Shown here piece after piece: positions 2,161-27,937 of a stretch of DNA of 33,036 nt (its first letter is position 1; each line of letters begins with the position of its first letter). Origin of the DNA: a virus; the IMG/VR virus record IMGVR_UViG_3300039796_000001, positions 1 through 33,036 of that record; one strand, written 5' to 3'. Position numbers and translations under genes: made by a program. The notes beneath the pieces are model-generated. The model was not told where the DNA came from and did not search any database. It saw only the letters and a program-made list of their open reading frames with translations.

Positions 2161-2304
2161 TTATTTTTTCTTCTTAGACCTTCTTGCTTGCGAATAAGCT
2201 ATAGCAATTGCTTGCTTCTGTAGCTTATTCGCTTGCATTTCTCGTCTAATATTTTCTGAAAAGCCCTTCTTAGTACGGGATTTTTTACCTGATATTAAAG
2301 GCAT
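2161..2304 (-). CDS. Small basic phage protein of 47 aa, not in the ORF track.
   Basis: My translation is MPLISGKKSRTKKGFSENIRREMQANKLQKQAIAIAYSQARRSKKKK*. AGGTGA lies 5 nt upstream of the ATG at 2304. The KQAIAIAYS..AR pattern is recalled from small conserved phage proteins. Confidence 0.55.
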   Translation of the reverse strand: MPLISGKKSRTKKGFSENIRREMQANKLQKQAIAIAYSQARRSKKKK

Positions 2305-2307
2305 ATA

Positions 2308-2541
2308 TCACCTAATTGTGCTGAAAATAGAAAATGTAAAATGCTTAAGAGGAAAATTTATATTACTAACAGTATAATTTGATTGAATTAATCTGACATA
2401 GGCTAATTTTTCAGAAAATGTCATTTTATTACCGTCTGAATTGTACATTTTTATATCATCCAACGTATCTGATTTTGAAAATGCACTGACTTTATGAAAA
2501 GTATCTAACATTTTCTGTAGCTCATTATAGTTAGGTAGCAT
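2308..2541 (-). CDS. Hypothetical 77-aa protein.
   Basis: An internal ATG at 2541 (MLPNYNELQK...) overlaps the terL stop by 11 nt. The longer track ORF from 2586 would run deep into terL. Confidence 0.4.
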   Translation of the reverse strand: MLPNYNELQKMLDTFHKVSAFSKSDTLDDIKMYNSDGNKMTFSEKLAYVRLIQSNYTVSNINFPLKHFTFSIFSTIR

Positions 2542-3994
2542 AATAAACAATCTCGGTAGCGACATCCCGAACCATCTGATGCTCAATGGCTAGGGTCATG
2601 GTTTGAAAAGCATCGACAGCGTGTGAAGTCCAATCGTGTAGAGGCGAATCTTTGTAGATATTATTTTTCTCATCAAACACCTTGGAGTAATTGGATAGGC
2701 AATCAATCAATCTTTCCGTATTTTCCTTATTAAACTTGGTTCTATAAAGTATTCTACGCATCAAATTAATGGCATCAATTTTACGCTGAGGTTTAGGTAC
2801 GCAATAAGCGGCCTCCCCTAGTTCTTGTAAAATGTCTTGAGTGCTTTTGGCAGTGGCCTTATCTCGGCTTTTACCATCATGCGGTAAAAAATGGCTGTGT
2901 AAACGAAGATGGTGTCGAGTGCAAAGGCGATGCGCTTCATTGACATAATATTGAATCGGATGATTATTGGCTTCAATAAAGTGGATAATGACCGGATTAT
3001 TTAAATGATCGAATTGTGCTAAAACAACAGCAGTTGAATCATTAACCCCTAAATCATAGAAGGCATAGACCGGAACATTGGGCAAAATCAGCTCAGGAAT
3101 AATTTTCTTAGTTTCGTCCAAGTTTTGAACTTCTTTGGAAAAATATAATCTTTCATGTTGTACGGTAATGACTGAATAATACTCCTGCTGAATTAGAAAT
3201 TCAGGCATACCGGCTTTACGGTCTTCATCGATTAATTCATCGGTAACGTATCTATTGCCGTTTTCATCTTTAAGGCTTTCGACGCTATCAATACGCCATA
3301 CCCAAGCCGGATTGGTTTTGATGGATTGTAGATAACGATAGGCATGATTCATGCCGTTAAAAGTGGTTTGTAAAATAAACCAGCCGTTATTTTGTCGAAA
3401 GACTGGCATAAGAATATGTAAAACTCGAGGGTCAGAAAACGCATATTCAGAGAAGACAGCTCCAAGCACATTCACCCCTCTTAACTTATCTGGGTCGATA
3501 TCTGACCCTAGTACTCGAATCACAGAGCCGTTAATGAGCTGTATGGTCATATCTTGGTTATTGATATGCTTGATACACCTCTTAGGGATCATATCCAGGA
3601 AGCGAAGACTTTTCCCTTCATTCTCATCATTCAATAATACGGCACCTTCCCATAGCACAAGGCGTGCCCGTACATTGGTGGGATAGATCATCAAATACAA
3701 CCCGGCTTGAGTCAGTGCCCCTTGAATCAGGAGGTTCCACGACTCAACCTCTTTTCCTGAACGTCTAGGTCGTACTAAAAAAAATCGTTTATAATTTTCA
3801 GTAAATAATTTGTGCTGTATTTCTAATTGATAAGGTCTTAGCTGTAAACACGGCAAAGAGACGGCTTCTGTTTTGCCAAACTTTAAAACAAGATTATTTT
3901 TATCATCGCGCTCCCAGGTAAATTGCCCATACGATCGTTTTTGTAGATGCGCTTTTAAATGGTTGATTTCTTTTTTAAAAGTAGCGAGTTGCAT
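2531..3994 (-). CDS. terL: Terminase large subunit, T7 gp19-like.
   Basis: 487 aa with a Walker-A-like RPRRSGKE after LRPYQLEIQ. It is the last large gene after the tail fibre, as in T7-type gene order. Confidence 0.85.
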   Translation of the reverse strand: MQLATFKKEINHLKAHLQKRSYGQFTWERDDKNNLVLKFGKTEAVSLPCLQLRPYQLEIQHKLFTENYKRFFLVRPRRSGKEVESWNLLIQGALTQAGLYLMIYPTNVRARLVLWEGAVLLNDENEGKSLRFLDMIPKRCIKHINNQDMTIQLINGSVIRVLGSDIDPDKLRGVNVLGAVFSEYAFSDPRVLHILMPVFRQNNGWFILQTTFNGMNHAYRYLQSIKTNPAWVWRIDSVESLKDENGNRYVTDELIDEDRKAGMPEFLIQQEYYSVITVQHERLYFSKEVQNLDETKKIIPELILPNVPVYAFYDLGVNDSTAVVLAQFDHLNNPVIIHFIEANNHPIQYYVNEAHRLCTRHHLRLHSHFLPHDGKSRDKATAKSTQDILQELGEAAYCVPKPQRKIDAINLMRRILYRTKFNKENTERLIDCLSNYSKVFDEKNNIYKDSPLHDWTSHAVDAFQTMTLAIEHQMVRDVATEIVYYAT

Positions 3995-3996
3995 TT

Positions 3997-5964
3997 CTAA
4001 TATTTTATAACGAAATTAGCTGCAAAGTTTGATGGACGTGATTCTTTTCCACCAAAATCAACTGTAATATTTGATGATCCCAATGAATTATCACCGCCAG
4101 CGAAAGCAGTGACACTAGTGTTTGGGTTTAAAAGCGCAAAATTACCATTACGTGATGAATGATGGTGAGAATAAATTTCATCAAACTGAAATGAACCGAT
4201 AGCATTATTAATCAATCCTTGACCATAATTAAAATAGCGGTCATCCACTTTCACACTGCCATCTTGGTTCCAGCCGCGAATGAATGTATCTTGTAAATCA
4301 GGTACAGCAAAATAAAACTGATTGATGGCAATTTTAATCTTTTGGACAACTTGTGCGAGAGTATCAGACTGCACAAAATCGACAGGAATATTGGTACCTG
4401 AAATGGTCGGTGGTTCGCCTTGACCATTTATTCTAGCAAAGACATTAAAGTTTGCAGCACTCGTTGAAAACGTCCAGTAATCGCCGGGTTTAATCGTGCT
4501 TGCATCGGTACACGTTATACGTGTTAATTGATGTCCGCCTATAAATTCAGCGAGATAAATAGCGACATCTCTAGCGGTATGTGTCGATAAAAGTGGTAGC
4601 AAGATTGCAGTTAAGTAGGATGGGACAGGATTGGTGCCTTGGCCATTTACAGTGAACCACACTCCGAAGGTATTGATTGTATTTGCAAATTTAAACCATT
4701 TACCGGCTAAATTATTAGCAGCAGTACAATTGATGTAGAAAAGTGGTTTTACTCCTGCAACATTTCTTAGTTGAACGATATTAAACCCACTGGTTTGTAC
4801 ATCGGGTGCTGTAACAGAAGCGGCTATTTTTCCTTGTACATAAACACGATTAGGGTAATCAGAACTTAGGAAGGCATTCACCGCATAATTATTGCCTGCA
4901 AATGGCGTTTCTATGGTAAATCCTGATGTTCCTGCTGTACTTGCCCTTGCTGCATGGATTCGATTTGTGGTTAAAATGAGTTGGTTGTTGGCATTAAGGT
5001 TGGCAGTAACAAAGCTAGTACTCGTACCAAATCGATAATACCCTGTTTCTTCATTCCAAAGTTTTTTTGCTAGACGTAGATAAGGAATATTATCGGCCGA
5101 AGAACCTGACCGTAAATAACGTGTGCCGACACAGAGTAATTCACCCATCTGAGCTTTAGGATAAACAGCAGCAAATATCTTTCCCACATCACCATCATAA
5201 ATAAATAAGCTGCCTTTACCATAATAAACCGGTAAGCCTTCACTTAAACCATCGGGTTCTGGTATTGGTAAAAAATCATGTAGATACTTAATATAGGTCT
5301 GTAATTGATTTAAAAAGGCTTGCAAGGTCAAACCTTGTTTTTGAATATTATCGTAATAACCAATTAAGCCCGTTCCATCTCCTCCATTCGGGAATTGACT
5401 AGCCAATTCCGAACGTAAGGTACTGACATTGGTATTTTCAATTTGGGCTGCGATAATTTGTCCGTTTCGACTGAGCCAGACTTGATTGTCTTTGGTGGTT
5501 AAGATGGGTAATTTATTAGATAAATTAGAAGGTAGATAACTATTAATCACATACTGCAAGCTATCGGTATCTAATTCGGTTTGAAACTGCTGCATAATCA
5601 GCAAAACACGTTCAAAGGCGGCATCTAAGGTATGGCCATTAAAGGTTTGTGCATTGCCAAACTCTGTATCGATACTGACCTGCATGCTACGTACTAAAGT
5701 AACAATACTACCGTTGCTAGGTATTTTATCTTGAACAAAGGTAATGGTACCACCCGTCATGGTTCCCGTATCTTGAACAGTATAATCCTGATTTAAGATA
5801 CAAAGATCTTTATCCGGATTAGCCGCATCAGTTGGCTGTGTCACATAAACAGCGATATCTTCTTCGATCAAGATTAAATAGGTGTAGTTGAAGACAGCCG
5901 TTGTACCATCTGCAATATATTGGTTAATCGTTTTCTGCTGCGGTAAATAGCTTGTAATATTCAT
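3997..5964 (-). CDS. Tail fibre.
   Basis: The N-terminal ~140 aa follow the T7 gp17 adaptor pattern (INQYIADGTTAVFNYTY...IAVYV...GSIVTLVRS...TFNGHTLDAAFERVLL). The C-terminus is tail-collar-like (IYSHHHS...GGKESRPSNFAANFVIKY). Confidence 0.8.
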   Translation of the reverse strand: MNITSYLPQQKTINQYIADGTTAVFNYTYLILIEEDIAVYVTQPTDAANPDKDLCILNQDYTVQDTGTMTGGTITFVQDKIPSNGSIVTLVRSMQVSIDTEFGNAQTFNGHTLDAAFERVLLIMQQFQTELDTDSLQYVINSYLPSNLSNKLPILTTKDNQVWLSRNGQIIAAQIENTNVSTLRSELASQFPNGGDGTGLIGYYDNIQKQGLTLQAFLNQLQTYIKYLHDFLPIPEPDGLSEGLPVYYGKGSLFIYDGDVGKIFAAVYPKAQMGELLCVGTRYLRSGSSADNIPYLRLAKKLWNEETGYYRFGTSTSFVTANLNANNQLILTTNRIHAARASTAGTSGFTIETPFAGNNYAVNAFLSSDYPNRVYVQGKIAASVTAPDVQTSGFNIVQLRNVAGVKPLFYINCTAANNLAGKWFKFANTINTFGVWFTVNGQGTNPVPSYLTAILLPLLSTHTARDVAIYLAEFIGGHQLTRITCTDASTIKPGDYWTFSTSAANFNVFARINGQGEPPTISGTNIPVDFVQSDTLAQVVQKIKIAINQFYFAVPDLQDTFIRGWNQDGSVKVDDRYFNYGQGLINNAIGSFQFDEIYSHHHSSRNGNFALLNPNTSVTAFAGGDNSLGSSNITVDFGGKESRPSNFAANFVIKY

Positions 5965-5968
5965 GGGC

Positions 5969-8365
5969 TTATTGTCCGTAATACATTTTTTGACCTGGTG
6001 CTAAATAAGATTTATCACCGAGGATCTGATTGAGATAAGGGCCGATAATCGGCATCGTATCGATAGGTAGAATATTTTTAGCAATATTTTTTATTTCTTT
6101 CCCTGCTTTCTTTGGGTTAGCTGTCGCAACAGCCCCTCCTAATGAAACGGTATCTAGTAATAGTTTTACGCTAGGCGGTGTAAACATTTTTGCCAAATCG
6201 CCTGACCCTCTATAATCAGGGTCAACGGTTTGCATGAAAACCCCAAAATTTGGGTTAACTAAATCCACTAAATAACTCATTTTTTGAGGGATGTTCATTT
6301 TGGAAAACAATGGCATGCTTTTGCCGTGCGATAAGTTATTAAATAGATTTGACATATAACTTAGAGGTAGGGTTGCGGCAAACATCGCTAATGCCCAACG
6401 TAAGCGCATTTGGGTATTCATAGCATCTTGAAAGCCTTGCCATATCACTTTGTCGGCATAGGTTAAAGCGAACCCTTTAAACTGCATCACCATGCGGAAT
6501 GCTTCCCCCCAGCCTGTACCTGGCCGTGTACCATAATACATAAAGGATTTCATAAAGTTATCTGGGGCTAATACGGCATTATCAGAAGCAACCGAAAATA
6601 TCGAATAAACCTTTCGATACAAATCATTACGCATCTCATAGCGAGGTTTTGTATTGCCATATAACGCTTTTAACTCGTCATCTGTGACAGCTTCTACATT
6701 GGCCGTTGTAAATAATCCTTGTTGATTCTTGGTTCGAAGTAAATCCCACTCTTTTTCCCCTAAATCATATTTTTGTAATTGCCAGCGCGTCGCGTTATTT
6801 AAGTTTTTCCAAGATTGATCACGTTGGTTATATAATCCTTTAGAGATAATGTGCATTAAGGAATGCCGATTTCCTTTGTCAAAGGCTTCCAGCAAATTGG
6901 CTCTAAAAAAACCTGTGGTCACTTTCTGAATGAGTTCAGTTCCATTGGTTAAATCTGCAAAGCGAGCGATATAACCGAGATGGCTATCTGCCAGAAGCTT
7001 GAATTGCTTCGCAATAAACGTTCGCTCGGCATCGGCAAAACGATCAAAGGTATGTGCTATCGTTGAAGCAAAGCTTTGGAAATATTGATTGCCCCATCGC
7101 TGTGCAAAAGAAGCGATATAGACAGAATCAGGCAAACTCTGTAATACGATAGTCGATAGCCTCGCTGTAGCGGTTAAAGCACGTATATTGGAGCCAAACG
7201 CAGCAATGGTGGGGCTTACTGCTCCCTTATTTTGCTGCATGACTTCTTTATATATCTTGTCAGTATTATCATTCCAATATTGATTTTTAGGTGCTTTTTT
7301 CATCTGAATCTTTTTCAGATCAAGATAAACCGATGCGGGGTTATCACCCATTAGTTCAGCAGTGCCAATACGATTTCCAGAACTATTGAGATCACCATTG
7401 ATAGCTTTAAACAAATTACCTTGACCATATTCTCGGCTATAATTCAAAAAAGACTCATGATCTTTCCAGTAAAAGAACATATGTGCCTTTCTTTTAACGG
7501 CTTCTCTATCATTGATAATCGTTGAACGCGTGAATATTTCACTTTTACCCGTCGTGATATTGTCATAAATCGTTTGTAATCGTTTATCCACTTCCGACTC
7601 AAGGAGTTTGCTTTCTGTATCAATGGCTTTACTGCCAGCAAAGGTTTTCTCTAAATTGAGATGCGTTTTTATGAATGAAACCCATCGTTTCTCTGCATTT
7701 TTAATGGACTTAGAACGCATTTCAGCCGATAAGTTATCAAGACTTAACCGCTTTTCCATACTTCGCCCACCTTGCATCACTAATCGTTGATCATGCACGG
7801 CTCGTATAAATCGATCGGTATTCACTTCACGCAGACGTAAGGCATTGGAGGTAATTAATTCTGGATTACGGACATCGATATAATTTTCTATTTTTTTAGC
7901 GAGTTGTTTGGCTAAATCAGGCGCTGCTTTACCATCTAAGGCACGGGCAATGGAAATATCGTTATCTTTGTTTTGCAAATAACTTAATTCTTCATCTGAC
8001 ATCCCTTGGTATAACGCTTTGAACAAGCGCTGTTTAGCGGCTTTTTGATAGGCCTCAACATTCATAGATAAGTTCGTATAACGTTGTGCTAATAATGAAC
8101 GTATATCAATATTTTTGGTTTTTAAGGTGGTTGCTAAGTTATCAAATTTACGAATATTATTTTGTGTGACTAAGGCGTCTTCAAAGAAAGACTGTAATTG
8201 TTCTTTATTGACATCCTCAATGGCTTGGCTAATAGCCTTCTGACTGCGTAAACTATCGTAACTTCTCGCTTTAGCTAATACGTCATTGACGTAAGTATGC
8301 AAATCATCTGTATTAAAATGAGCTAATTGTTTAAGAGCTGTATCAAAACAGTGTTGATTCTTCAT
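5969..8365 (-). CDS. Internal virion / ejection protein, large (gp16 position).
   Basis: 798 aa. The call rests on position between the core proteins and the tail fibre in T7-type order. No polymerase motifs seen. Confidence 0.6.
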   Translation of the reverse strand: MKNQHCFDTALKQLAHFNTDDLHTYVNDVLAKARSYDSLRSQKAISQAIEDVNKEQLQSFFEDALVTQNNIRKFDNLATTLKTKNIDIRSLLAQRYTNLSMNVEAYQKAAKQRLFKALYQGMSDEELSYLQNKDNDISIARALDGKAAPDLAKQLAKKIENYIDVRNPELITSNALRLREVNTDRFIRAVHDQRLVMQGGRSMEKRLSLDNLSAEMRSKSIKNAEKRWVSFIKTHLNLEKTFAGSKAIDTESKLLESEVDKRLQTIYDNITTGKSEIFTRSTIINDREAVKRKAHMFFYWKDHESFLNYSREYGQGNLFKAINGDLNSSGNRIGTAELMGDNPASVYLDLKKIQMKKAPKNQYWNDNTDKIYKEVMQQNKGAVSPTIAAFGSNIRALTATARLSTIVLQSLPDSVYIASFAQRWGNQYFQSFASTIAHTFDRFADAERTFIAKQFKLLADSHLGYIARFADLTNGTELIQKVTTGFFRANLLEAFDKGNRHSLMHIISKGLYNQRDQSWKNLNNATRWQLQKYDLGEKEWDLLRTKNQQGLFTTANVEAVTDDELKALYGNTKPRYEMRNDLYRKVYSIFSVASDNAVLAPDNFMKSFMYYGTRPGTGWGEAFRMVMQFKGFALTYADKVIWQGFQDAMNTQMRLRWALAMFAATLPLSYMSNLFNNLSHGKSMPLFSKMNIPQKMSYLVDLVNPNFGVFMQTVDPDYRGSGDLAKMFTPPSVKLLLDTVSLGGAVATANPKKAGKEIKNIAKNILPIDTMPIIGPYLNQILGDKSYLAPGQKMYYGQ

Positions 8366-9735
8366 AAGCTACCTTGTAAACACTGCATTAGGTCATTAAA
8401 GACCTGTGATTTAGTTTTAAATTCCTGATACCTTTTGAGCGCAGGCTGTACTTCCTTCGATAAATCACTGTCTTCTACTGTGTGTTTTGAAGCTATCGGT
8501 GATAATTCAGCTTCTTGTTTTAGAGTATCTTGATATTGCTTTAAGCGGCTTTTAGCATCGAATGATTGTTGTTCAGCGAGTTTAGTATTAGGCAATTGAT
8601 TTTCGATTCGTTGTTTTAAATAGTCTTTCACAGCATCGCTATTTGCTAAAGGTTCAGAACCGGCATCGATGTGGTCAATGATATTGTATAAAAACGGCCT
8701 CCAATCCTCTTCACCTTTGGTATCAAGCTCTGACAAAATGCCTTTCAGACCGGCGCTTAATGCAGGATTTTGTTTGAGTCTATCTAACGCATTTTTTTGG
8801 ATGAAATCCGACAGTACATTGGGGTTATTGATACCTTCACGGGCTAATAATTCCTCTGGTATAACCGACTGTAAGGCTTTAATATCATTAGGCGTTAATA
8901 GCGACACATTCACTTTATTATTGATAGGATTAACAGAGAGATCAGGATGATTTTTTTGTAGTAGTTCAGCGGCATGTTGTTCAAGTTCAGGGTTCTTTGG
9001 ATTTTTTAGATATTCCTGAAACCAAGCTTTTTCTTCTGGCGTAATACGCTTATTCGTTTGTGCTTGATTGAGCATTCCTTCTGTTATGTTATTGGTTTTA
9101 ACACCATTAAAAAATTTAGAACGAATCACGCTGGCTACAAAGGGAACAGAACCTAAGGCTAATCCAATCCCACCGGCAATAGCCGTAGATTTAATAAAAT
9201 GCGAAACATCCACTTTATTATCGGCTGTTATCGATTCAGCTAGATTTTGAGGAATCAATGGCGCAGTACCAATACCAGAAACAGTTAATGCTTTTTCTCC
9301 CAGTGACCCCATGGTTTCAGTGGATAATTTTGAGATCGTTTTTCCAGCAAAGTTTGACAAAAATTCCGGTGCTAACGCTGAAGCACCTCTAACAGCACCT
9401 TTAGCTAACAATCCACCTACACCACCTAATGCGATATTAATGGGGTTTAATCCAAAGCCTAATACGGCAGCAATTCCATCGCCAAATTTTTGTGTTAACG
9501 GTAAGTCAGATACTTCAGTTACATTTTGTATCGCATGATAGAGATCATTAAGTGATGAAAAGTGCGGATGTAATCCCGATAATGATCCTATTTTGTCTAA
9601 AGCCATTTCAGGTGCTATCAATTGTCCTAAGACATTCCCAGATAGTGAAGCGCTATAACTGGGAGGACTAAATTCGGCTTGTTGTTGGTATTGTTCTCTA
9701 AAATCAGGCTTTACTATCGCATTACTGAGTAGCAT
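8362..9735 (-). CDS. Internal virion protein with Gly-rich hydrophobic segments.
   Basis: 457 aa. Segments such as GIAAVLGFGLNPINIALGGVGGLLAKGA and IAGGIGLALGSVPFVASV suggest membrane insertion. An ATGA-type overlap joins it to the next gene. Confidence 0.6.
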   Translation of the reverse strand: MLLSNAIVKPDFREQYQQQAEFSPPSYSASLSGNVLGQLIAPEMALDKIGSLSGLHPHFSSLNDLYHAIQNVTEVSDLPLTQKFGDGIAAVLGFGLNPINIALGGVGGLLAKGAVRGASALAPEFLSNFAGKTISKLSTETMGSLGEKALTVSGIGTAPLIPQNLAESITADNKVDVSHFIKSTAIAGGIGLALGSVPFVASVIRSKFFNGVKTNNITEGMLNQAQTNKRITPEEKAWFQEYLKNPKNPELEQHAAELLQKNHPDLSVNPINNKVNVSLLTPNDIKALQSVIPEELLAREGINNPNVLSDFIQKNALDRLKQNPALSAGLKGILSELDTKGEEDWRPFLYNIIDHIDAGSEPLANSDAVKDYLKQRIENQLPNTKLAEQQSFDAKSRLKQYQDTLKQEAELSPIASKHTVEDSDLSKEVQPALKRYQEFKTKSQVFNDLMQCLQGSL

Positions 9736-9737
9736 GA

Positions 9738-12294: not shown

Positions 12295-12301
12295 AAGTCT
12301 C

Positions 12302-16050: not shown

Positions 16051-16230
16051 ACGCAACCTAATAAATAAAAATTAATTAATTTCCATCTATCAGGTTGCCT
16101 AAAATAAAATTAGGGCTGATATGGCACACGATCGACTAAAAAGGTTACGAAAAGGCTTTTTAGTTGATAATTTCAGTTTAGTGCTTGTATTTAAAAGCGC
16201 AACTACTTTATAAGGTATAAAAAGTAGTTT

Positions 16231-21202: not shown

Positions 21203-21210
21203 AAAAAGGC

Positions 21211-21438: not shown

Positions 21439-21446
21439 CGTATCAC

Positions 21447-21701: not shown

Positions 21702-21730
21702 AGCAGTTCCTTGCAGTGTTAAATTAAATA

Positions 21731-21926
21731 GTTACTTTTTTAAGAGACGATTGGCTTTAGCTTTTATTTTTTCGGCAGAAGAGGCAGACAATTTCCCTTT
21801 CTTAACCATTTGAGTAGCGCGTGCTTTCGCATTGATCGCGTGCTCTTTTTGGGTATTTTTCTTGTTTAGGTAAACCGAAAACAGATTTTTTCAGTTTCTT
21901 TCGTTTGGCAGTTGTTAGAATAGTCA
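21731..21926 (-). pseudogene. Small basic phage gene interrupted by a +1 frame change at an A5 run.
   Basis: The span is 196 nt, i.e. 3n+1. The 5' frame gives MTILTTAKRKKLKKSVFGLPKQEKYPK.. and stops at 21801-21803. The next frame continues as EHAINAKARATQMVKKGKLSASSAEKIKAKANRLLKK*. The junction is CCAAAAAGAG, which is the T5 run at 21845-21849 on the plus strand. Confidence 0.5.
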
Positions 21927-21969
21927 TCCTTGACTTACATCCTTGTGTCCGAATTACGTATATATCATA

Positions 21970-22350
21970 TCATATCCGATAATTCAATATCGAAATGGGT
22001 TTATATTGATTATCAAGGTAAGATAAAAGCAAATCAATTGATTCTTCGACACTTCTTGTTACTTCTGCGGCATAACCATTTTGTCGCATTTTGATTAACC
22101 AATTTTCTTGTTCGGGTTTTAAAGTTCCGGTTTCTGTTTTCAATTCTAGCCAGAGTCCAGGATAGTTTTTTGTTAGTGCCGGTAAAAACAAATCGCTAAC
22201 GCCTTTTCTTACACCCATTAATTTTAGTTCTCTCGCCTCAATAGGATGTCTGTAACCACCATTAGGAATATGTAAGAGCAGTTCTTTCATGACAGGATGA
22301 GTGAAAGCATTTCGCACAACCATTTTATGGATGTATTTTTCACATAGCAT
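21970..22350 (-). CDS. VRR-NUC domain nuclease.
   Basis: 126 aa. GVSDLFLP...GLWLELKTETGTLKPEQENW fits the VRR-NUC D...E.K signature. Confidence 0.65.
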   Translation of the reverse strand: MLCEKYIHKMVVRNAFTHPVMKELLLHIPNGGYRHPIEARELKLMGVRKGVSDLFLPALTKNYPGLWLELKTETGTLKPEQENWLIKMRQNGYAAEVTRSVEESIDLLLSYLDNQYKPISILNYRI

Positions 22351-22351
22351 A

Positions 22352-22570
22352 TCAATCCTTTTTGCTATCTAGCCTCGCGTTACTAATGATTCGATTTATG
22401 TGGAGCTCCGTTGATGCCAAAGCAATACTGATTTCATATGGCAAGCGACCTGACCTTTTCAAATAAAACATATAAGGATAACAGCCTATTTTACTTTGAA
22501 TGATCCTCTTTAAGATTCTATAGGCTATTTCTGTGCATTTAGCCTGCAATCTTTTTACCGCTCCCGACAT
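22352..22570 (-). CDS. Small protein with a possible HTH.
   Basis: 72 aa. LPYEISIALASTELHINRIISNAR resembles a helix-turn-helix. It has its own ATG with AAGGA upstream. Confidence 0.4.
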   Translation of the reverse strand: MSGAVKRLQAKCTEIAYRILKRIIQSKIGCYPYMFYLKRSGRLPYEISIALASTELHINRIISNARLDSKKD

Positions 22571-22794
22571 CGTCTTATTTCCTTTCTAATAGTTCCTCTC
22601 ATAATAGCGGCATGAATCATCAGAATGAATCTAATTTCATGAAGTTCATAGCCTTTATTTTTTAAATAAAGTTTGTGACAAGCCTTAATGAGGTCATTAA
22701 TAGGCTTAAAATGATAGAGAGAAGAGAAAAAGTGTATGCCTGCACGGCATATTTTTTTGTAGGTCAGATCAATCGTAGCAATAGAAGTTTCCAT
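22555..22794 (-). CDS. Hypothetical protein, first gene of the leftward operon.
   Basis: 79 aa, from the ORF track. It lies next to the divergent control region. Confidence 0.4.
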   Translation of the reverse strand: METSIATIDLTYKKICRAGIHFFSSLYHFKPINDLIKACHKLYLKNKGYELHEIRFILMIHAAIMRGTIRKEIRRCRER

Positions 22795-22994
22795 ACTTTA
22801 CTTTCCGCCCGCTTAAAAAAAGTGCGCCATACAAAAGGGAGTAAATATAACGCACAATAAAGCTCCTATCCTACTATTTTAACATATATTTTTTTTATTA
22901 TCGAACGCATAACTTATCAACAATTTCTGTGGGTAACTCTGTTGATAGATACTTAACAATCCACCTAGATGTTGTAGTCATTACCCTAGATATA

Positions 22995-23039
22995 GATCAA
23001 CCCAGATTGATCAAATGTTGATCAAATGTTGATCACACT
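22995..23039. promoter_or_regulatory. GATC-containing palindromic operator-like array.
   Basis: TTGATCAAATG occurs at 23007-23017 and 23018-23028, with TTGATCACAC at 23029-23038 and AGATCAA at 22994-23000. The TTGATCAA core is a perfect palindrome. The last three GATC sites (23009, 23020, 23031) are 11 bp apart. Confidence 0.55.
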
Positions 23040-23062
23040 CTAAAGCTTTCCTGAATTCTTAC

Positions 23063-23071
23063 TGATATAAT
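23063..23071 (+). promoter_or_regulatory. Extended -10 promoter of the PAS-LuxR gene.
   Basis: TGaTATAAT is read directly at 23063-23071 with no good -35. AGGAG lies at 23098-23102 before the ATG at 23111. Confidence 0.45.
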
Positions 23072-23110
23072 GTAAGTTCTCAACACATATAAAAATTAGG
23101 AGTAGTTTTT

Positions 23111-23836
23111 ATGAATCTAAGCGCAGAACAAAAACGAGAAAAACTAATAAAATTTTCCGAACATTTTCCTGTTAATACATTCCCTGGCCTGACTACAATT
23201 ATGTCACCAGAAAATACATATTTTCATTCCTCTAAAACTGTTATTAAAACGATAGGATGTAAAAGTGAAGAAGAAGCGCACGATATTCCATTTAAGGATA
23301 TACCAGCTCATAGCCATACTAATCATGTTCAATGGTCAATAGATAATAAGGCTACGATGGAAAGTAAAAAAGTAATTAGAATTATTAGTTATGGTCATTT
23401 TTCAGATGGATGGAAAGTATATTTAGGACATCAAAAACCCATTATAGATGATGAAAGTGAAGAAGCTATAGGAGTTATTGGTAATTATATAGATATAACT
23501 GAGAACTCATTTTTTGATATAGGACGACTTATCCTAATGGAAAAAAATGGCTTAAAGAGAAAACAATTCCAATATAGAATACAAAGTAACCAAGGGTTTG
23601 AGGGATTATGCAAAAGAGAACAAGAAGTTTTATTTTGGTACTTGCATAATCTAAATTCGCCAGCTATATCAAGAAGATTATCTACTGAGACTAAGCCAAT
23701 CACTCCACAAACTGTTAGATCATACATAAGAAATGCAAAACTAAAGTTAGGAGTTAGCACAAAAGAGCAGCTATTAGAAAAATGTATATCTATAGGGTTT
23801 ATGGCGACCGTACCCGAATCATTATTCATAGACTAG
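23111..23836 (+). CDS. PAS-like sensor domain plus LuxR/GerE-type HTH transcription regulator.
   Basis: The C-terminus LCKREQEVLFWYLHNLNSPAISRRLS...ITPQTVRSYIRNAKLKLGVSTKEQL is a canonical LuxR-type HTH. The N-terminal ~150 aa end in a PAS-like AIGVIGNYIDITE. Confidence 0.8.
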   Translation: MNLSAEQKREKLIKFSEHFPVNTFPGLTTIMSPENTYFHSSKTVIKTIGCKSEEEAHDIPFKDIPAHSHTNHVQWSIDNKATMESKKVIRIISYGHFSDGWKVYLGHQKPIIDDESEEAIGVIGNYIDITENSFFDIGRLILMEKNGLKRKQFQYRIQSNQGFEGLCKREQEVLFWYLHNLNSPAISRRLSTETKPITPQTVRSYIRNAKLKLGVSTKEQLLEKCISIGFMATVPESLFID

Positions 23837-23843
23837 TTAATTA

Positions 23844-24245
23844 TCAATAGGCCATTTTATTTTTAGGATGGTCTATTATATCAAAGTATTTACAAAATAT
23901 ATTGTAAATTACATCCAAATCAAAAGGTTTTATTATGGACTCATTTATTCCTGATATTGTATTTTTATTATGTAATTCATAATTAGCAGTCATAAGTACA
24001 ATAGGTGTTTCACTGTCAGTTTTTCTAAACTCTTCAACAAATTCTACCCCTCCCATAACTGGCATCTTTACGTCGGTAAAAATAAAATCAATTTTTTCTT
24101 TAGTCGATTTAATAAAATCTAATCCCTCTTGACCATTGTTAGCTATAAAACTAGTCATATTTAATCGACCAAAAAAGTCTGTTAATACTCTTTGCTGTAT
24201 CTGGTTATCTTCAATAATTAAAATATTCATTTTTTTTAATTCCAT
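23844..24245 (-). CDS. Stand-alone response-regulator receiver domain (CheY-like).
   Basis: 133 aa. All receiver residues are present: E12-D13, D58 (FTDVKMP), T86 (LMTAN) and K106 (IKPF). There is no output domain. Confidence 0.85.
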   Translation of the reverse strand: MELKKMNILIIEDNQIQQRVLTDFFGRLNMTSFIANNGQEGLDFIKSTKEKIDFIFTDVKMPVMGGVEFVEEFRKTDSETPIVLMTANYELHNKNTISGINESIIKPFDLDVIYNIFCKYFDIIDHPKNKMAY

Positions 24246-24371
24246 TGTTATGTAAATAGGAATTAACTATTTTAATCTTATGGAGTTCATAAAAAAACGA
24301 CCAAACTGTTGTGACCGAAGTGTGGTAAGCCAAACACCTACATAATTCTTGTATGCATATTTATTTTATTC

Positions 24372-24399
24372 TTGTTAATTTATCGATAAATGATAGAAT
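24372..24399 (+). promoter_or_regulatory. Sigma70-like promoter for the candidate small RNA.
   Basis: The -35 is TTGTTA (24372-24377), followed by a 16-nt spacer. The extended -10 is TGaTAGAAT (24391-24399). Confidence 0.45.
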
Positions 24400-24404
24400 T
24401 ATTG

Positions 24405-24475
24405 TTCGCACAGATGCCTATTATGTTGGGTAGAGCGAGCCTAGGCTGAGTACGAAAGTGCTTGGCCTTTTTTGT
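24405..24475 (+). ncRNA. Candidate ~70-nt small RNA of unknown function.
   Basis: A promoter sits just upstream and an intrinsic terminator at the 3' end. No credible ORF or RBS lies between them. Confidence 0.4.
24443..24475 (+). terminator. Intrinsic terminator hairpin with a GAAA loop and U-run.
   Basis: aggctgagtac-GAAA-gtgcttggcct forms an 11 bp stem including G-U pairs. It is followed by tttttgttt. Confidence 0.55.
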
Positions 24476-24509
24476 TTCTGTTATATAATATGTTTAACAA
24501 ATTAAACAT
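24462..24509 (+). promoter_or_regulatory. relBE promoter and palindromic operator.
   Basis: The -35 is TTGGCC (24462-24467), the spacer is 16 nt and the -10 is TATAAT (24484-24489). A perfect inverted repeat ATGTTTAA-caaa-TTAAACAT lies at 24490-24509. Confidence 0.55.
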
Positions 24510-24521
24510 CAGGGGATGAAC

Positions 24522-24728
24522 ATGTTAGGCGTACGTTTAAACAAAGAAATAGAGTCAAGGTTAAACAAACTATGTGAAGAAACAGGACACACTAAAAGTT
24601 ATTACGCAAAGAAAGCGCTGTATGAATTTTTAGAGGATAGAGAAGATTACCTATTGGGTTTAGCTGTATTAGAAAGGAATGAGCCTACTATTAGTCTTGA
24701 AGAATTGAGGAAAGAACTTGGTTTATAA
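24522..24728 (+). CDS. relB: RelB/CopG-type ribbon-helix-helix antitoxin.
   Basis: MLGVRLNKEIESRLNKLCEETGHTKSYYAKKALYEFLEDRED is an RHH pattern. AGGGG lies 6 nt upstream of the ATG at 24522, and the track ATG at 24516 abuts the SD. The gene overlaps the toxin gene. Confidence 0.85.
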   Translation: MLGVRLNKEIESRLNKLCEETGHTKSYYAKKALYEFLEDREDYLLGLAVLERNEPTISLEELRKELGL

Positions 24729-24984
24729 AATTGAATTCTCCGAAAAAGCTAAGAAATCTATAAAAAAACTAGATCGTCAGGTTCAAAAAAAGATATTAGA
24801 TTACATTGATGAAAAAATATGTAAAAACCCTTATCATAAAAGATTGGGTATAAAATTATCTTATGAAAAAGCAGGATTATGGAGATACCGTGTTGGTGAT
24901 TACAGGATAATATGTGAAATAAATGATAAAAAAATTACCATATTGGTCTTAGATGTCGGACACAGAAGGGATATATACAAATAA
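24718..24984 (+). CDS. relE: RelE/ParE-family toxin.
   Basis: 88 aa. KIEFSEKAKKSIKKLDRQVQKKI...WRYRVGDYRIICEINDKKITILVLDVGHRRDIY is the classic RelE/StbE pattern. A TTG start overlaps the end of relB. Confidence 0.85.
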   Translation: MVYKIEFSEKAKKSIKKLDRQVQKKILDYIDEKICKNPYHKRLGIKLSYEKAGLWRYRVGDYRIICEINDKKITILVLDVGHRRDIYK

Positions 24985-25114
24985 GGGCATAGTTTAAGGC
25001 TACGCCCTACTTGTATATTCAAACACTATATGAATAAAATAGTATGAACAAACCATTATAACATACTTTATTATGTTTGTGGCCGAATTCGGTTAAGTAG
25101 TTGACCGAATCGGT

Positions 25115-25528
25115 TTAGAAAGGTATCTGATCATCAAAAGTTTCGTCTTCTTCTATTGCTTTAGGGTTAACAGGTGCGAAGGGTTTATCAGTTCCTCCGC
25201 CTAGCATCTGAAGGTCACTAGCCAGTATCTCAGTGCTCGTTTTTTCATGCCCTGTCTTATCCGTGTACTTCCTGGTCTGTATCTTCCCCTCTATATACAC
25301 CTTAGCGCCCTTTTTAAGGTACTGTACGGCTATCTCGGCTAACCTTTGGAAGAGGACTATCCTATGCCATTCAGTCTTCTCATGCTTAGCGCCCGTCGCC
25401 TTATCCTTCCAGTTCTCCGAAGTTGCTACGCTAATAGAACTCATCGCAACACCATTAGGCGTATGACGTAGCTCGGGGTCGTTTCCTAAGTTCCCTATAA
25501 TGATTACCTTGTTAATTCCTTTTGACAT
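25115..25528 (-). CDS. ssb: Single-stranded DNA-binding protein.
   Basis: [21 protein letters not shown]...TEWHRIVLF is an OB fold. The acidic tip DDQIPF is typical of proteobacterial SSB. Confidence 0.9.
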
Positions 25529-25529
25529 G

Positions 25530-25795
25530 AAAGCTCCCTAGTTAATTAGTTAATCAACTTGTGAATAATTATGCACAGGTTAAAAATTAAATCTGATCTC
25601 TATATACTATATATACATATAATGATTAGTGAAGATCGATAATTCTTTATTAAGATATCGTTATAATTAAATAAATGCTAAATTCTTTATTATAGAAGGA
25701 GAAAGAGGAGTATAAACAGTATAAATAATGAACAATATATAGGGTTGGACGTAACGATGCCTCTGTAGTCAAACAGATTTAAAAAATATTAGGTA
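25530..25795. other. Candidate vegetative origin: DnaA box, AT-rich tract and 12-mer direct repeats.
   Basis: TTATGCACA (25569-25577) fits TTATNCACA. An alternating TA tract lies at ~25598-25624. AATTCTTTATTA occurs at 25641-25652 and 25681-25692, exactly 40 bp apart. GATC sites lie at 25595 and 25634. The region is immediately downstream of rep. Confidence 0.4.
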
Positions 25796-26518
25796 TTAAG
25801 GCCCAGATTTTTGTGTAGAACGACAGAATCTCATATTTTTAATGAGGTCTTTTATCTTAGACATTTGGCTAGCGCCATTGGGGTCTTTTTTTACCGATTC
25901 AGGTACATAAAATTTATGAGGTGACGGCTTGTTAATCTCTTCTTTTATACGTTTTTCCTGTCTAACCTTATCTTCTTGTTTGTTAAAAGCGGACAGCTTG
26001 TTACGCTCTAGTCGTTCTTTATTAAAGCCTAAGGCTATAAAGAAATCTAAGGTTAGTCTTCTAACCGAGGGAGCCGATTTAAAGTATTTATTGTAATCCT
26101 CACTACCTCTGTGGATGTTTCTTTTTGGTGGTATTGTTTTAAACATCTTAAGAACGGTCATGTACCCTGCTCTTTTAAGCAGGACGATGCACTTATTAAA
26201 GTAATAGGTAGATAGACCCGTAACCCTTCGGAGTATCTTTAGGTCGAAGTTTACAAACTCGCATCTTTCCTTATTCCATACCCCATATTGAAGGCTGGCT
26301 AAGTCGGTATAGTGAAGTAAGGCTTGAGAGAATGATTTAAGGGCATCCAGCTGCTTTTTAGATACTTTACCTATCTTCTGTAGGAACACGTATCTTTTAT
26401 CAATGGATTTACAAAGTCTCTTCGCCTCTTCTAAAAATTCTGGACGACGATAATGCCACGAGGGCTGATTAAAAAGAGCATTAGAACTAGAACTATTACT
26501 CAACATTTCGCTTACCAC
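25796..26518 (-). CDS. Plasmid replication initiator, tentatively RepA-like of the IncFII style.
   Basis: 240 aa with a winged-helix-like LSTYYFNKCIVLLKRAGYMTV and a basic C-terminal third. Context supports the call: an antisense RNA hairpin and leader ORF upstream, and an origin-like DNA downstream. The start is ambiguous (GTG 26518 or ATG 26506) and lacks an SD. Confidence 0.55.
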   Translation of the reverse strand: MVSEMLSNSSSSNALFNQPSWHYRRPEFLEEAKRLCKSIDKRYVFLQKIGKVSKKQLDALKSFSQALLHYTDLASLQYGVWNKERCEFVNFDLKILRRVTGLSTYYFNKCIVLLKRAGYMTVLKMFKTIPPKRNIHRGSEDYNKYFKSAPSVRRLTLDFFIALGFNKERLERNKLSAFNKQEDKVRQEKRIKEEINKPSPHKFYVPESVKKDPNGASQMSKIKDLIKNMRFCRSTQKSGP

Positions 26519-26538
26519 AGTTAGTTGAGCGAAAGTTG

Positions 26539-26568
26539 TTGATTTTCTTATGAATCGCTGGGTATAAT
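26539..26568 (+). promoter_or_regulatory. Promoter for a countertranscript antisense to the rep leader.
   Basis: The -35 is TTGATT (26539-26544), the spacer is 18 nt and the -10 is a perfect TATAAT (26563-26568). Confidence 0.45.
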
Positions 26569-26572
26569 CGCT

Positions 26573-26650
26573 TCATGTGACGGAGCCCCTTAATCGATTA
26601 CTACCCTGCCAAGAGTTTCCTTCGATTAAGGGGTTTTCTATTTGTATCAT
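26573..26650 (-). CDS. Possible 25-codon leader peptide in the rep leader.
   Basis: My translation is MIQIENPLIEGNSWQGSNRLRGSVT*. AAGGG lies 6 nt upstream. The ORF is fully covered by the candidate antisense RNA. Confidence 0.3.
   Translation of the reverse strand: MIQIENPLIEGNSWQGSNRLRGSVT
26575..26637 (+). ncRNA. Candidate antisense RNA controlling rep (CopA-like role).
   Basis: It starts ~7 nt after the TATAAT. A 12-bp perfect stem, ccccttaatcga (26586-26597) with tcgattaagggg (26622-26633), is followed by TTTT. The RNA lies wholly within the rep 5' leader on the opposite strand. Confidence 0.45.
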
Positions 26651-26738
26651 AGGAAACCCTTTTTGAATCTGTTCTATATCGTCATTGTTATGACGTTCTA
26701 ATTATCTCTGTCTTTGTTGTAATTAAATACTTACCTGA

Positions 26739-26766
26739 GTATTACCCTACTTTCTCATTTTGTCAA
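26739..26766 (-). promoter_or_regulatory. Candidate rep promoter.
   Basis: On the minus strand, TTGACA (26766-26761) is followed by a 16-nt spacer and TAATAC (26744-26739). This would give a ~215-nt leader. Confidence 0.35.
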
Positions 26767-26807
26767 ATACTAAAAAATCCCTATAAATTAAGCTATTTAT
26801 ACTCATT

Positions 26808-26883
26808 TGCACTACACCGTTTATTAGTATATTACACCTTTATACACCGTATGGATTAGTTTAGTGCATAACTACATTGCACC
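26808..26883. repeat. Iteron or centromere-like T(A/G)CACC hexamers upstream of parA.
   Basis: TGCACT lies at 26808, TACACC at 26813, 26833 and 26843, and TGCACC at 26878. Confidence 0.55.
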
Positions 26884-26933
26884 TATCAGTGTAATGTATT
26901 AATATACCTCTACCTTATATAAAGAGTATAAAA

Positions 26934-27656
26934 ATGAAAATTATTTTAATAGGTGGGGCAAAGGGCGGCCCTGGTAAAAGCACTATTGCAACAAATTTGT
27001 CTGTGATGAGTTGCTATATGACTAAAAAAACACTTTTAATCGATATAGATAGTAAAGGCTCTACTACCTCTTCTGAATTTATAAATGAACGTCATGATAA
27101 GCAATTAAAATTCACTCCCAATTGCATTCAGCTATCAGGTAGATACATTAATAAAGAAATAGAAGATTTTTCCAATCAATTTGATGTAATAGTAATCGAT
27201 GCAGGTGGATATGATTCCGTCGAATTACGGTCGGCCATGTTATGTGAATTGGTTAAGGAAGTGTTTATACCTGTTAGACCTGGCAAAGCAGATATTGGAA
27301 CGTTATCAAAAATGGACGAAGTTATAGAAAAAGCAAAGTGTATTAATGAGAATATGATAGGGAAAATTATATTAAATCAATGCCGTTCTGTAGGTAAACA
27401 ATTAGCACTTCATAATAGTATCAGTGCCATAGAAAAATTAGAATATATGGAAGTGCTTAAAACAAGAATTTTTAATCGCATCTCATTTGAACATGCTTTG
27501 GAAGATTCTCTAATAGTTATTGAATCTGAAAAAAAGGATATGAAAGCGATGAAAAAATATCAATTGGACAGATATATACCCAAAGCTTCTCAAGAAATGA
27601 AAGAACTGTATTTTGAAATAATTAACGAAGAATTTTTTATAGAGGAAAGTTTATGA
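26934..27656 (+). CDS. parA: ParA-family partition ATPase (small, type Ib-like).
   Basis: It has the deviant Walker A GGAKGGPGKST at the N-terminus and a Walker B-like VIVIDAGG. 240 aa with no N-terminal HTH. Confidence 0.85.
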   Translation: MKIILIGGAKGGPGKSTIATNLSVMSCYMTKKTLLIDIDSKGSTTSSEFINERHDKQLKFTPNCIQLSGRYINKEIEDFSNQFDVIVIDAGGYDSVELRSAMLCELVKEVFIPVRPGKADIGTLSKMDEVIEKAKCINENMIGKIILNQCRSVGKQLALHNSISAIEKLEYMEVLKTRIFNRISFEHALEDSLIVIESEKKDMKAMKKYQLDRYIPKASQEMKELYFEIINEEFFIEESL

Positions 27657-27937
27657 GCAATAACAAGAGTATAGCTGATTTTATAGATGAGCCCAATAAG
27701 GTCACTCATAGAATTTCAAGAAAAAACCCATCAAAAAAAGATATCTTACTTATGATAACGGGTAAAAAAAGTAATGACATAAGATCTATTAGAAAAGTTA
27801 TGTATTTTAAAGAAGATATTTTTAATGATATCGAAAAGTATTGTTCTGGTCACTTTACAGCAATTGTAAATTATTTGATCAAAAGAGGATTAGATGATGT
27901 TGTTAAAAAAGGGGAAAAGGTGTTTGATGAGGCATAG
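27653..27937 (+). CDS. Putative centromere-binding partner with an RHH-like C-terminus (ParG/ParR analogue).
   Basis: 94 aa. An ATGA overlap joins it to parA, and GAGGA lies 7 nt upstream. The C-terminal RKVMYFKEDIFNDIEKYC..FTAIVNYLIKRGLDDV looks ribbon-helix-helix. Confidence 0.5.
   Translation: MSNNKSIADFIDEPNKVTHRISRKNPSKKDILLMITGKKSNDIRSIRKVMYFKEDIFNDIEKYCSGHFTAIVNYLIKRGLDDVVKKGEKVFDEA

Follow-up and report, generated by a model that had tools for sequence, protein, structure and literature searches.

A candidate podoviral phage-plasmid in which a T7-type virion block is joined to a plasmid replication, partition and addiction arm

The IMG/VR virus record IMGVR_UViG_3300039796_000001 comprises 33,036 nucleotides, all of which were analysed here and are referred to as the window. 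From position 2531 to about position 20900, its minus strand carries a virion and packaging block that is intact and, in architecture, of the T7/BPP-1 type. To this block is joined an arm (20840-33036, continuing into 1-2305) that encodes a replication initiator candidate, an antisense RNA, a single-stranded DNA-binding protein (SSB), a ParA-type partition operon and a RelBE-like toxin-antitoxin pair. The first 127 nt (1-127) are an exact copy of positions 32910-33036, from which a circle of 32,909 bp results. Since 127 nt is a common assembler k-mer length, and since this overlap sits in coding sequence (the end of a Vat-like gene and the start of the open reading frame (ORF) 111-407), the repeat is read as the assembly closure of a circular or circularly permuted molecule rather than as a physical terminal repeat. 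The window corresponds to one closed element devoid of chromosomal flanks, and the extent of 2161-27937 proposed in a preliminary description of this DNA, made from the letters alone, was too narrow. As argued below, the element is a candidate podoviral phage-plasmid, i.e. the genome of a temperate podovirus that probably persists as a low-copy plasmid prophage instead of being integrated, and its host is most likely a member of the Legionellales of the Rickettsiella/Aquirickettsiella type, which are bacteria of insects and mites.

The virion and packaging block is made up of the following genes.

2531-3994, minus strand: large terminase (TerL; ATPase and RNase-H-like nuclease), matched by phrog_2472 only among profiles and by fold with AlphaFold/Foldseek
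3997-5964, minus strand: tail fibre, its adaptor domain N-terminal and its collar/fibre domain C-terminal (phrog_1640, 5662, 327 and 523)
5969-12294, minus strand: four genes at the T7 internal virion protein position (798, 457, 707 and 146 amino acids (aa)), the 798-aa protein (5969-8365, minus strand) by profile (phrog_684, E 3e-62), the other three by position only
12302-14275, minus strand: tail tubular protein B (phrog_376, E 1e-75)
14277-14852, minus strand: tail tubular protein A (phrog_394, E 1.6e-25)
15160-16056, minus strand: major capsid protein (PF19821, E 1e-20; phrog_3437)
16231-16896, minus strand: putative scaffold, by position and conservation only
17486-19063, minus strand: T7-type portal, or head-to-tail connector (PF12236, E 1.9e-42; phrog_332)
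19833-20219, minus strand: gene resembling small terminase subunits (TerS-like; phrog_4102)
20558-20839, minus strand: NrdR-type Zn-ribbon protein (PF22811)
20840-21202, minus strand: Terminase_2 small terminase (PF03592), which holds the right-hand joint between block and arm

The succession of portal, scaffold, capsid, tubular A, tubular B, internal proteins, fibre and TerL is the T7 order. The preliminary description had claimed as much, and the portal, the capsid, both tubular proteins, the fibre and the 798-aa protein are now recognised by profile and TerL by fold; its scaffold and internal core calls stand for this one internal protein, the scaffold and the three other internal proteins being placed by position. 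All four genes at the internal position are kept in Rickettsiella prophages, and the tail fibre is 66-77% identical to that of the virion-block relatives presented below. As regards TerL, no Pfam match was obtained, and neither the comparison of its profile with PDB sequences nor hhalign against T7 gp19 gave a significant result. An AlphaFold2 (AF2) model built from 27 homologs (confidence measure pLDDT 82.7) retrieved with Foldseek, as top matches, the full-length large terminases of D6E, T4 gp17, HK97 and Sf6 (E 5e-17 to 1e-10), and the homologs bear at JGI the name 'phage terminase large subunit'. The assignment as large terminase is confirmed by this modelled fold.

The wording 'T7-type' is a statement on architecture, not on membership of the Autographiviridae. 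Among the hallmarks of that family and of strictly T7-like phages, the T7-type portal, the tubular A/B proteins and the gene order are present in the window, whereas the RNA polymerase (RNAP), the DNA polymerase and the primase-helicase are missing, and there is no BLAST-level similarity of the window to T7 proteins. According to tail tubular B, the nearest cultured relatives (20-27% identity) are MEP301, the HTVC pelagiphages, YeP4-6, BPP-1 and phiV10. Since these are RNAP-less or temperate podoviruses, the lack of the two polymerases is not unusual in itself. The earlier statement that no frame encodes a phage RNA polymerase, DNA polymerase, primase/helicase or integrase withstood dedicated searches: no window ORF matched polymerase, primase, helicase, integrase, excisionase or cI-type repressor families in profile searches, and six-frame tblastn with T7 gp1, gp4 and gp5 and with the Int, Xis, cI and DnaB proteins encoded by the nearest related prophages reached a best E of only 0.2 (4.3 for T7 gp1, the RNAP; 1.4-1.5 for T7 gp5 and gp4). 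Besides, every intergenic gap is too small to conceal a polymerase- or integrase-type gene. Neither an att site nor chromosomal flanks, named in the preliminary description as signs of integration along with an integrase, were found, the contig closing on itself. A tRNA scan detected no tRNA genes in the window, Rfam gave no match at gathering thresholds, no near-identical record turned up by megablast among 50,697 phage and 72,556 plasmid records, and two window proteins submitted to an exact look-up were not on record.

The features that would allow the element to be kept as a plasmid are located in the arm.

24516-24728, plus strand: RelB-like antitoxin (NF048017, 69.2 bits against a cut-off of 50)
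24718-24984, plus strand: RelE/ParE-superfamily toxin (PF05016, E 1.6e-15)
25115-25528, minus strand: SSB (PF00436, E 1.7e-37)
25529-25795, non-coding: candidate origin of 267 bp, directly downstream of rep, with conserved blocks in an alignment (A3) of four elements
25796-26506, minus strand: replication initiator candidate (Rep) of 236 aa with a winged-helix core and remote homology to IncFII RepA
26539-26643, plus strand: antisense (counter-transcript) RNA gene, RNA of ~65 nt, with a TTGATT-18-TATAAT promoter, stem, loop and U-run
26573-26766, minus strand: rep promoter (TTGACA-17-AATACT, from 26766 to 26738) and leader, conserved in relatives
26813-26883, minus strand: four GGTGYA heptad cores upstream of parA (70 bp), candidate operator/centromere
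26934-27656, plus strand: small Walker-type ParA of 240 aa without N-terminal DNA-binding domain (AAA_31/CbiA/MipZ; phrog_164, E 3e-28; NF041546)
27653-27937, plus strand: ParA partner of 94 aa, its gene overlapping parA
27946-27992, minus strand: five tandem 10-bp repeats with the heptads AGGTGTA, AGGTGCA, GGGTGTA and AGGTTTA (twice), starting 9 nt past the par operon, candidate centromere

Concerning the initiator, a profile of 54 members of the Rep family was aligned with R100 RepA over 116 columns (hhalign probability 89.6%, E 1.9e-6); among these members, one matches IncFII_repA (E 7.2e-6) and five match HTH_36. The AF2 model of Rep (pLDDT 70.8) displays the winged-helix core. The family is rare: a search of 5.8 billion proteins gave 8 close homologs, and one of 1.84 billion gave 70 representatives at E<=1e-3. 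In annotated collections its relatives are only hypothetical proteins, weakly homologous, of nine Legionella plasmids and one Aquicella plasmid. In the L. pneumophila plasmid NZ_CP015948, the one inspected, the gene of the Rep homolog is divergent from the adjacent ParA gene and the partner ORF downstream of the latter, and this place beside parAB is, by analogy, the classical position of an initiator. Comparison of the family profile with PDB sequences yielded nothing meaningful, and Rep found no match in the phage collection. Foldseek matches to the N-domain of staphylococcal Rep proteins (E about 0.1) were not used as evidence for an initiator.

The region between rep and parA is kept among relatives whose Rep identity ranges from 53 to 97%. 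The antisense RNA comprises a 12-bp stem (26586-26597 / 26622-26633) and a 24-nt loop followed by the U-run. All stem positions pair in six sequences, with three compensatory pairs, and three U.G pairs of this stem would become C.A mismatches on the mRNA strand; because of these compensatory and strand-specific G.U pairs, the antisense transcript is regarded as the selected structure. Antisense-RNA control of rep, with predicted transcription, is supported by the conserved promoters and this covariation. A leader ORF of 25 codons (26650 to 26573, minus strand) runs through the antisense target, and all six sequences retain its Shine-Dalgarno sequence and ATG. It counts 25 codons in three of the six, window included; in the remaining three it has about 45-51 codons and extends as far as the rep start region. 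That of the window ends 69 nt ahead of the rep start, without overlap. The start of the leader peptide, M(I/M)QIENP.. NRLRG, is kept in the six relatives, and its switch in length is caused by one-base indels just past the antisense target. In a relaxed Rfam scan of a 551-bp stretch, the top-scoring families, each on the strand where it would be expected, were CopA (RF00042) on the antisense strand (22 bits, E 0.18, against a gathering score of 60) and PK-repBA, also below threshold, on the rep strand (21 bits, E 0.029), a relative giving PK-repZ. No CopB-like repressor was seen. Downstream of rep, the candidate origin contains two inverted DnaA-box-like 9-mers (25560-25577), matching TTATNCACA, and an AT-rich stretch; its blocks are conserved in all four long relatives, and its layout, similar to that of IncFII plasmids, suggests that it functions as the origin. 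Taken together, these data point to an antisense-controlled replicon of IncFII/IncB-like layout, at a very large evolutionary distance.

As for partition, the heptads upstream of parA are kept in contig L002, which has the same ParA type, and are absent from contig L001, whose ParA is only 28% identical and whose Rep is 96% identical; two downstream heptad cores are conserved at the equivalent place in L002. Since they co-vary with the ParA type rather than with the Rep type, the heptad arrays are attributed to the partition system, and their reading as Rep iterons was dropped. In the 94-aa partner, a strand-helix-helix pattern is suggested by eye, and its matches to PDB sequences were spurious ADP-ribosyltransferase segments only. 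The antitoxin gene precedes the toxin gene and overlaps it by 11 nt, and two further contigs (L031 and L032) carry a ParE_toxin gene and a small partner ORF at the matching place beside ssb. Most of the plasmid gene set listed in the preliminary description has accordingly been borne out: this applies to the antisense-type control (conserved promoters and covariation), to the DnaA-box/AT-rich origin candidate (conserved blocks in four elements), and to ssb and relBE through the profile matches listed above. Its RepA-like initiator is retained on the grounds of the remote homology to R100 RepA, the synteny in Legionella plasmids and the conserved antisense region, in place of a direct Pfam, PHROG or NCBIfam match; its parA with a ribbon-helix-helix (RHH) partner and centromere-like repeats holds for the ParA profiles and for heptad arrays at a 10-bp period, and the RHH similarity of the partner was not detectable.

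The two parts of the element have different relatives. Those of the virion block are prophages of Rickettsiella and Aquirickettsiella; those of the arm are fragments on seven other contigs (L001-L003, L031-L033 and L087). Portal homologs at 60-94% identity are abundant, many of them on 33-37-kb contigs, a range into which the size of the window fits, and portal identity to Rickettsiella/Aquirickettsiella genome loci amounts to 75-96%. Among 12 portal matches in species-representative genomes, the record titles name Rickettsiella or Candidatus Aquirickettsiella for 10 (among them scaffolds of Rickettsiella massiliensis 20B), and only Gammaproteobacteria and Pseudomonadota for the remaining two. 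From 2531 to ~20839, the window matches these prophages gene by gene at 56-96% protein identity and in the same order. The Rickettsiella endosymbiont of Dermanyssus gallinae has a 1.89-Mb chromosome (CP079094) in which the virion block is preceded by genes for two tyrosine integrases, an excisionase, a cI-type repressor, a DnaB helicase and an SSB. Wherever the early region of the related loci is covered, it encodes Int, Xis, cI and/or DnaB. Rep, ParA, its partner, the toxin-antitoxin pair and the LuxR genes of the window are absent from all 12 fetched Rickettsiella-type genome loci. Since the close relatives of its virion module are integrative prophages without the arm, and not the ordinary lytic podoviruses lacking it that the preliminary description had envisaged as a contrary outcome, the arm is seen as a swapped-in lifestyle module.

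The arm itself (20840-33036 and 1-2305) shows an identical SSB-Rep-ParA synteny wherever the related contigs are long enough. In L001 and L003, it continues into a P22-type portal (P22_portal) and a second, unrelated terminase (Terminase_6C-type). In blastn comparisons, the similarity to a virion-block relative (L008) ends at 20924 on the right-hand side, and that to the arm contigs begins at 20925 (L003) and 20996 (L001), so that this joint falls within the Terminase_2 small-terminase gene common to both lineages. This gene (20840-21202) looks chimeric at the DNA level, its C-terminal end being like L008 and its N-terminal part like the arm lineage, an arrangement by which the end in contact with TerL would still correspond to the virion block. 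The left joint lies in 2305-2540: the similarity to L002 ends at 2305 and that to the virion-block relatives starts at 2540, the intervening 235 bp right after the TerL stop being unique. There, a 77-codon minus-strand ORF, whose ATG overlaps the TerL stop, is unique to the element. The G+C content is 0.32 in the arm and 0.38 in the virion block, and the arm is a mosaic of L001-like and L002-like segments. From these comparisons, the element is explained as a recombinant whose virion block comes from a lineage of integrative Rickettsiella prophages and whose arm comes from a plasmid-prophage lineage.

What is demonstrated at the sequence level covers gene content, remote homologies, conserved cis-elements, covariation and mosaic ancestry; plasmid maintenance and virion production would follow from these traits. 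With respect to the operational features of phage-plasmids, the window has a virion and packaging set (lysis genes are not recognised) and a partition system, it has no integration module, and its topology is circular at the sequence level. Several points nevertheless weigh against a plasmid prophage. First, Rep finds no direct match in Pfam (including PF02387 at E 0.01), PHROGs or NCBIfam, Foldseek of its model returns only generic MarR/winged-helix matches (E>0.03), and the Rfam matches of its control region are far under the gathering scores (about one third to one half). Second, the 94-aa partner is devoid of Pfam, PHROG, NCBIfam or RHH/PDB similarity, and ParA genes are present in some integrating phages too (PMC7969092). 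Third, no cI/Cro-type repressor was recognised by profile searches or tblastn, and no window ORF was returned by any profile search for endolysin, holin and spanin families. In addition, a second contig with the same two joints was found neither among the closest TerL contigs nor in JGI metagenomes.

These points leave room for other readings. The window could belong to a virulent or pseudolysogenic podovirus that would use Rep, ParA and SSB for lytic or carrier replication only, its circularity reflecting terminal redundancy or permutation. This would agree with the lack of a recognisable repressor, with the fact that terminal redundancy gives a circular assembly in any such phage, and with several 34-36-kb relatives (TerL 50-60% identical) devoid of detectable lysogeny genes within 10 kb of TerL. 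It is nonetheless considered unlikely: control of copy number by antisense RNA, a partition operon accompanied by its cognate repeats, and RelBE are traits of stable low-copy inheritance rather than of lytic growth, the closest relatives of the virion block are integrated, hence temperate, prophages, and the arm is conserved as a unit on the seven other contigs.

Alternatively, the element might be defective or domesticated, namely a plasmid with a captured virion block that no longer completes a lytic cycle. The outcome of the lysis gene searches mentioned above would be in keeping with this, a distant relative (L017) encoding, unlike the window, a GH108 endolysin. Yet every large ORF for virion or packaging proteins is intact and shares 56-96% identity with its counterparts in many 33-37-kb relatives, the 18-kb block is free of frameshifts and truncations, and small conserved ORFs such as 19245-19658 could be lysis genes, which makes such a decay decidedly improbable. 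Besides this ORF, the candidates for lysis genes are the ORF 28981-29148, with two hydrophobic stretches by eye, and the DUF1640-like ORF 111-407.

An assembly chimera of two co-resident phages, joined at shared sequence, has also to be weighed. The two parts differ in their nearest relatives and in G+C content, one joint lies within a gene common to both lineages, and the proteins of the window itself are absent from large collections. An independent contig with the same joints is likewise lacking: the contigs closest in TerL cease to resemble the window directly behind the TerL stop, a pattern anchored across the left joint gave nothing in JGI metagenomes, and a ParA-based metagenome scan delivered only a 5.9-kb arm fragment. 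Against this, a circle needs two false joins, and the left one is marked by the unique 77-codon ORF instead of shared sequence; the TerS genes of the two lineages are only about 56-78% identical at the protein level, far from an exact 127-mer. Moreover, L001 and L003 exhibit the same G+C offset between the arm and their own virion genes, the size of the window fits the capsid family, and the L001-like/L002-like mosaic within the arm is what natural recombination predicts. A chimera is for these reasons held to be very unlikely. As to an integrative element relying on the Xer-type recombinase of its host or on an unrecognised one, for which roughly 20 window ORFs without family assignment leave space, it is extremely unlikely, given that the best match to E. 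coli dif covers 19 of 28 bases and falls within the range of shuffled sequences, that a search of 185,579 species-representative genomes gave no member of the Rep family, that the arm proteins are absent from the 12 Rickettsiella-type loci, and that plasmid functions would be redundant in an integrated element. The reading of the window as a temperate podovirus genome kept as a low-copy plasmid prophage is therefore regarded as the probable one.

The other features of the arm are listed hereafter.

111-407: DUF1640-like membrane protein (profile)
436-630: ORF
731-1342, minus strand: lipoprotein
1462-2160, plus strand: 232-aa protein with a region (residues 102-220) like the C-terminus of LegK1 (E 1.7e-9)
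2161-2304, minus strand: small, very basic ORF of 47 codons, with an inverted repeat of 20-nt arms (2185-2237)
21211-22794, minus strand: small early genes heading the long minus-strand operon, syntenic in L001-L003
21970-22350, minus strand: VRR-NUC nuclease (PF08774, E 3e-10; phrog_824/5702)
22795-23110: divergent control region with repeat boxes, between the virion/early operon and the LuxR-type gene
23111-23836, plus strand: LuxR-type regulator (PF00196; weak match to TIGR03541, autoinducer-binding regulators, E 8.5e-5)
23844-24245, minus strand: single-domain response-regulator receiver (PF00072)
28041-32371, plus strand: accessory/early operon, including ORFs for which profile searches gave no function
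30316-31218, plus strand: RecE-type exonuclease (PF12684; phrog_412, E 5e-67)
31236-32114, plus strand: RecT (phrog_561, E 4e-28)
32406-33017, plus strand: Vat-family (streptogramin A type) hexapeptide acetyltransferase-like cargo (NF000311, 272.7 bits against a cut-off of 300)

The divergent control region contains three palindromic TTGATCA boxes with an 11-bp period (23007-23035), plus related half-sites. The LuxR-type/receiver pair is conserved in all long arm relatives (46-58% identity in L001-L003); together with the TTGATCA region, it constitutes a candidate lysis-lysogeny control, and the pair may act as a signal-responsive switch. At the beginning of the plus-strand operon, three tandem paralogous genes of ~100 aa without family assignment (28041-28977) include a direct repeat of 201 nt at 71% identity, one copy being 97% identical in L087. 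With regard to cargo, the Vat-like protein, which is also matched by the CatB type and is 85% identical in L001, is possibly encoded by an antibiotic-modifying gene carried by the phage of an intracellular bacterium. The 232-aa protein is 88% identical in L002 and, LegK1 being a Legionella Dot/Icm effector kinase, could be a secreted-effector-like cargo.

Among the relatives, variable cargo seems to accumulate preferentially at the TerL 3' end. In a census of 47 IMG/VR relatives of TerL, ParA was found in one (L028) and Rep in none. In this more distant T7-type relative (IMGVR_UViG_3300043426_000413, 11514-13853), whose TerL is 57% identical, a ParA and partner operon comes right after TerL, along with a 177-aa tyrosine-recombinase-like ORF and RecE/RecT, and it may represent a second, independent plasmid-type variant. 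In an integrated relative (L030; OZ205042.1, a 1.77-Mb chromosome), the same slot (11496-14238) is filled by a TIR-domain protein (CAP12-PCTIR_TIR) and a histidine kinase, possibly defence or signalling cargo.

How such a plasmid prophage might work can be outlined as follows. The winged-helix initiator would open the DnaA-box/AT-rich region just downstream of its own gene, where the host replisome would be recruited with the help of the SSB of the element. The ~65-nt antisense RNA would pair with the stem-loop of the rep leader inside the 25-codon leader ORF and thereby limit the initiator, in a manner comparable to R1 (CopA/Tap/RepA) and IncB/IncI plasmids. ParA and its 94-aa partner would segregate the copies via the heptad arrays on both sides of their operon, and RelB/RelE would penalise loss of the element. 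The LuxR-type regulator, the stand-alone receiver and the operator-like TTGATCA repeats, which face the 20-kb minus-strand operon, would likely control the choice between lysis and lysogeny. During lytic growth, RecE/RecT, SSB and VRR-NUC could make and process recombination-dependent concatemers for the TerS/TerL motor.

A more general proposal, which is tentative, is that a portable plasmid-prophage cassette (IncFII-like RepA with its antisense RNA, ParA with the heptad centromere, RelBE, SSB and the LuxR-type/receiver pair) circulates among phages of obligate intracellular Legionellales, plugs onto unrelated podoviral virion modules of the T7/BPP-1 and P22 types, and converts integrative phages to plasmid prophages. 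If this were true, the LuxR/receiver pair would make the lysis decision depend on a signal from the host or from bacteria, a behaviour reported for some other phage-plasmids. From a practical point of view, the 25.5-28.0 kb segment, a compact replicon and partition cassette of about 2.5 kb that is probably native to Rickettsiella/Aquirickettsiella, could be a starting point for shuttle vectors or transducing particles in these bacteria, whose genetic manipulation is at present difficult.

Phage-plasmids are an established category, known mainly from culturable bacteria; podoviruses are few among the tailed members, most of which are sipho- or myoviruses, and one podoviral example is the heterogeneous F116 community (PMC7969092). 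The preliminary description had judged a T7-architecture virion on a plasmid replicon unusual, and none is reported in searchable papers; that judgement has to be tempered, as the likeness to T7 holds only at the level of profiles and gene order and as podoviral phage-plasmids are rare but known (F116 community, PMC7969092). In the full-text literature, neither a T7-like phage-plasmid nor a phage-plasmid of Legionellales was found, and Rickettsiella prophages are mentioned only as PHASTEST detections. As judged from the sequence, the window would present a combination of virion type and replicon type that is unreported in searchable papers, in an unusual host group and with clear evidence of module swapping.

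Like P1, N15 and SSU5 (PMC7969092), the window unites a full virion and packaging set with a candidate initiator, ParA-type partition and an addiction module, has no integrase, and combines a conserved phage part with a variable accessory part. It differs from these myo- and siphoviruses of 50-100+ kb by its 33-kb podovirus-type genome, by its replicon, which is distantly IncFII-RepA-like with an antisense RNA and not of the P1 RepA, N15 RepA or IncFIB type, and by its probable host, an obligate intracellular member of the Legionellales. The F116 community and the ParA-carrying P22-like phages SE1 and ST160 share with it podovirus-type virions accompanied by ParA or a plasmid replicase, F116 itself having no detectable partition or replication system (PMC7969092). 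Unlike the P22 type, the virion block of the window is of the T7/BPP-1 type (PF12236 portal, tubular A/B), while its arm joins a P22-type block in L001 and L003.

BPP-1, epsilon15/phiV10, the HTVC pelagiphages and the Methylophilales phage MEP301 resemble the window in their tubular A/B proteins (20-27% identity for tubular B), in a T7-like structural order and in the lack of a phage RNA polymerase. Temperate members of this group integrate by means of integrases, and no RepA/ParA arm is reported for phages of these types in searchable papers. With regard to the replicon, the IncFII (R1/R100) and IncB/IncI plasmids show the same succession of promoter, leader with antisense target, short leader ORF, repA and downstream DnaA-box origin; the window departs from them by the lack of a direct PF02387 match, by sub-threshold Rfam matches to CopA, PK-repBA and PK-repZ, by a leader ORF that does not overlap rep and by the CopB-like repressor, which was not seen. 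Type Ib partition systems (TP228 ParF/ParG; pSM19035 delta/omega) consist of a small ParA without N-terminal DNA-binding domain, a partner of less than 100 aa and arrays of short heptad-like repeats serving as operator or centromere. The par system of the window is similar to them in its ParA, the size of its partner and its repeats; its repeat, AGGTGYA, is different and its RHH partner is putative.

In P1-like elements, gene exchange has been reported to turn phage-plasmids into integrative prophages and the reverse, and it is mostly on these elements that the idea of lifestyle conversion has so far been developed (PMC10879196). The closest comparison is offered by the integrated Rickettsiella prophages (CP079094; R. 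massiliensis 20B), which have the same virion block in the same order and carry two tyrosine integrases, an excisionase, a cI-type repressor and DnaB where the window has RepA/ParA/RelBE. With the same arm attached elsewhere to a P22-type block, these elements would represent a clean natural case of lifestyle conversion by module exchange.

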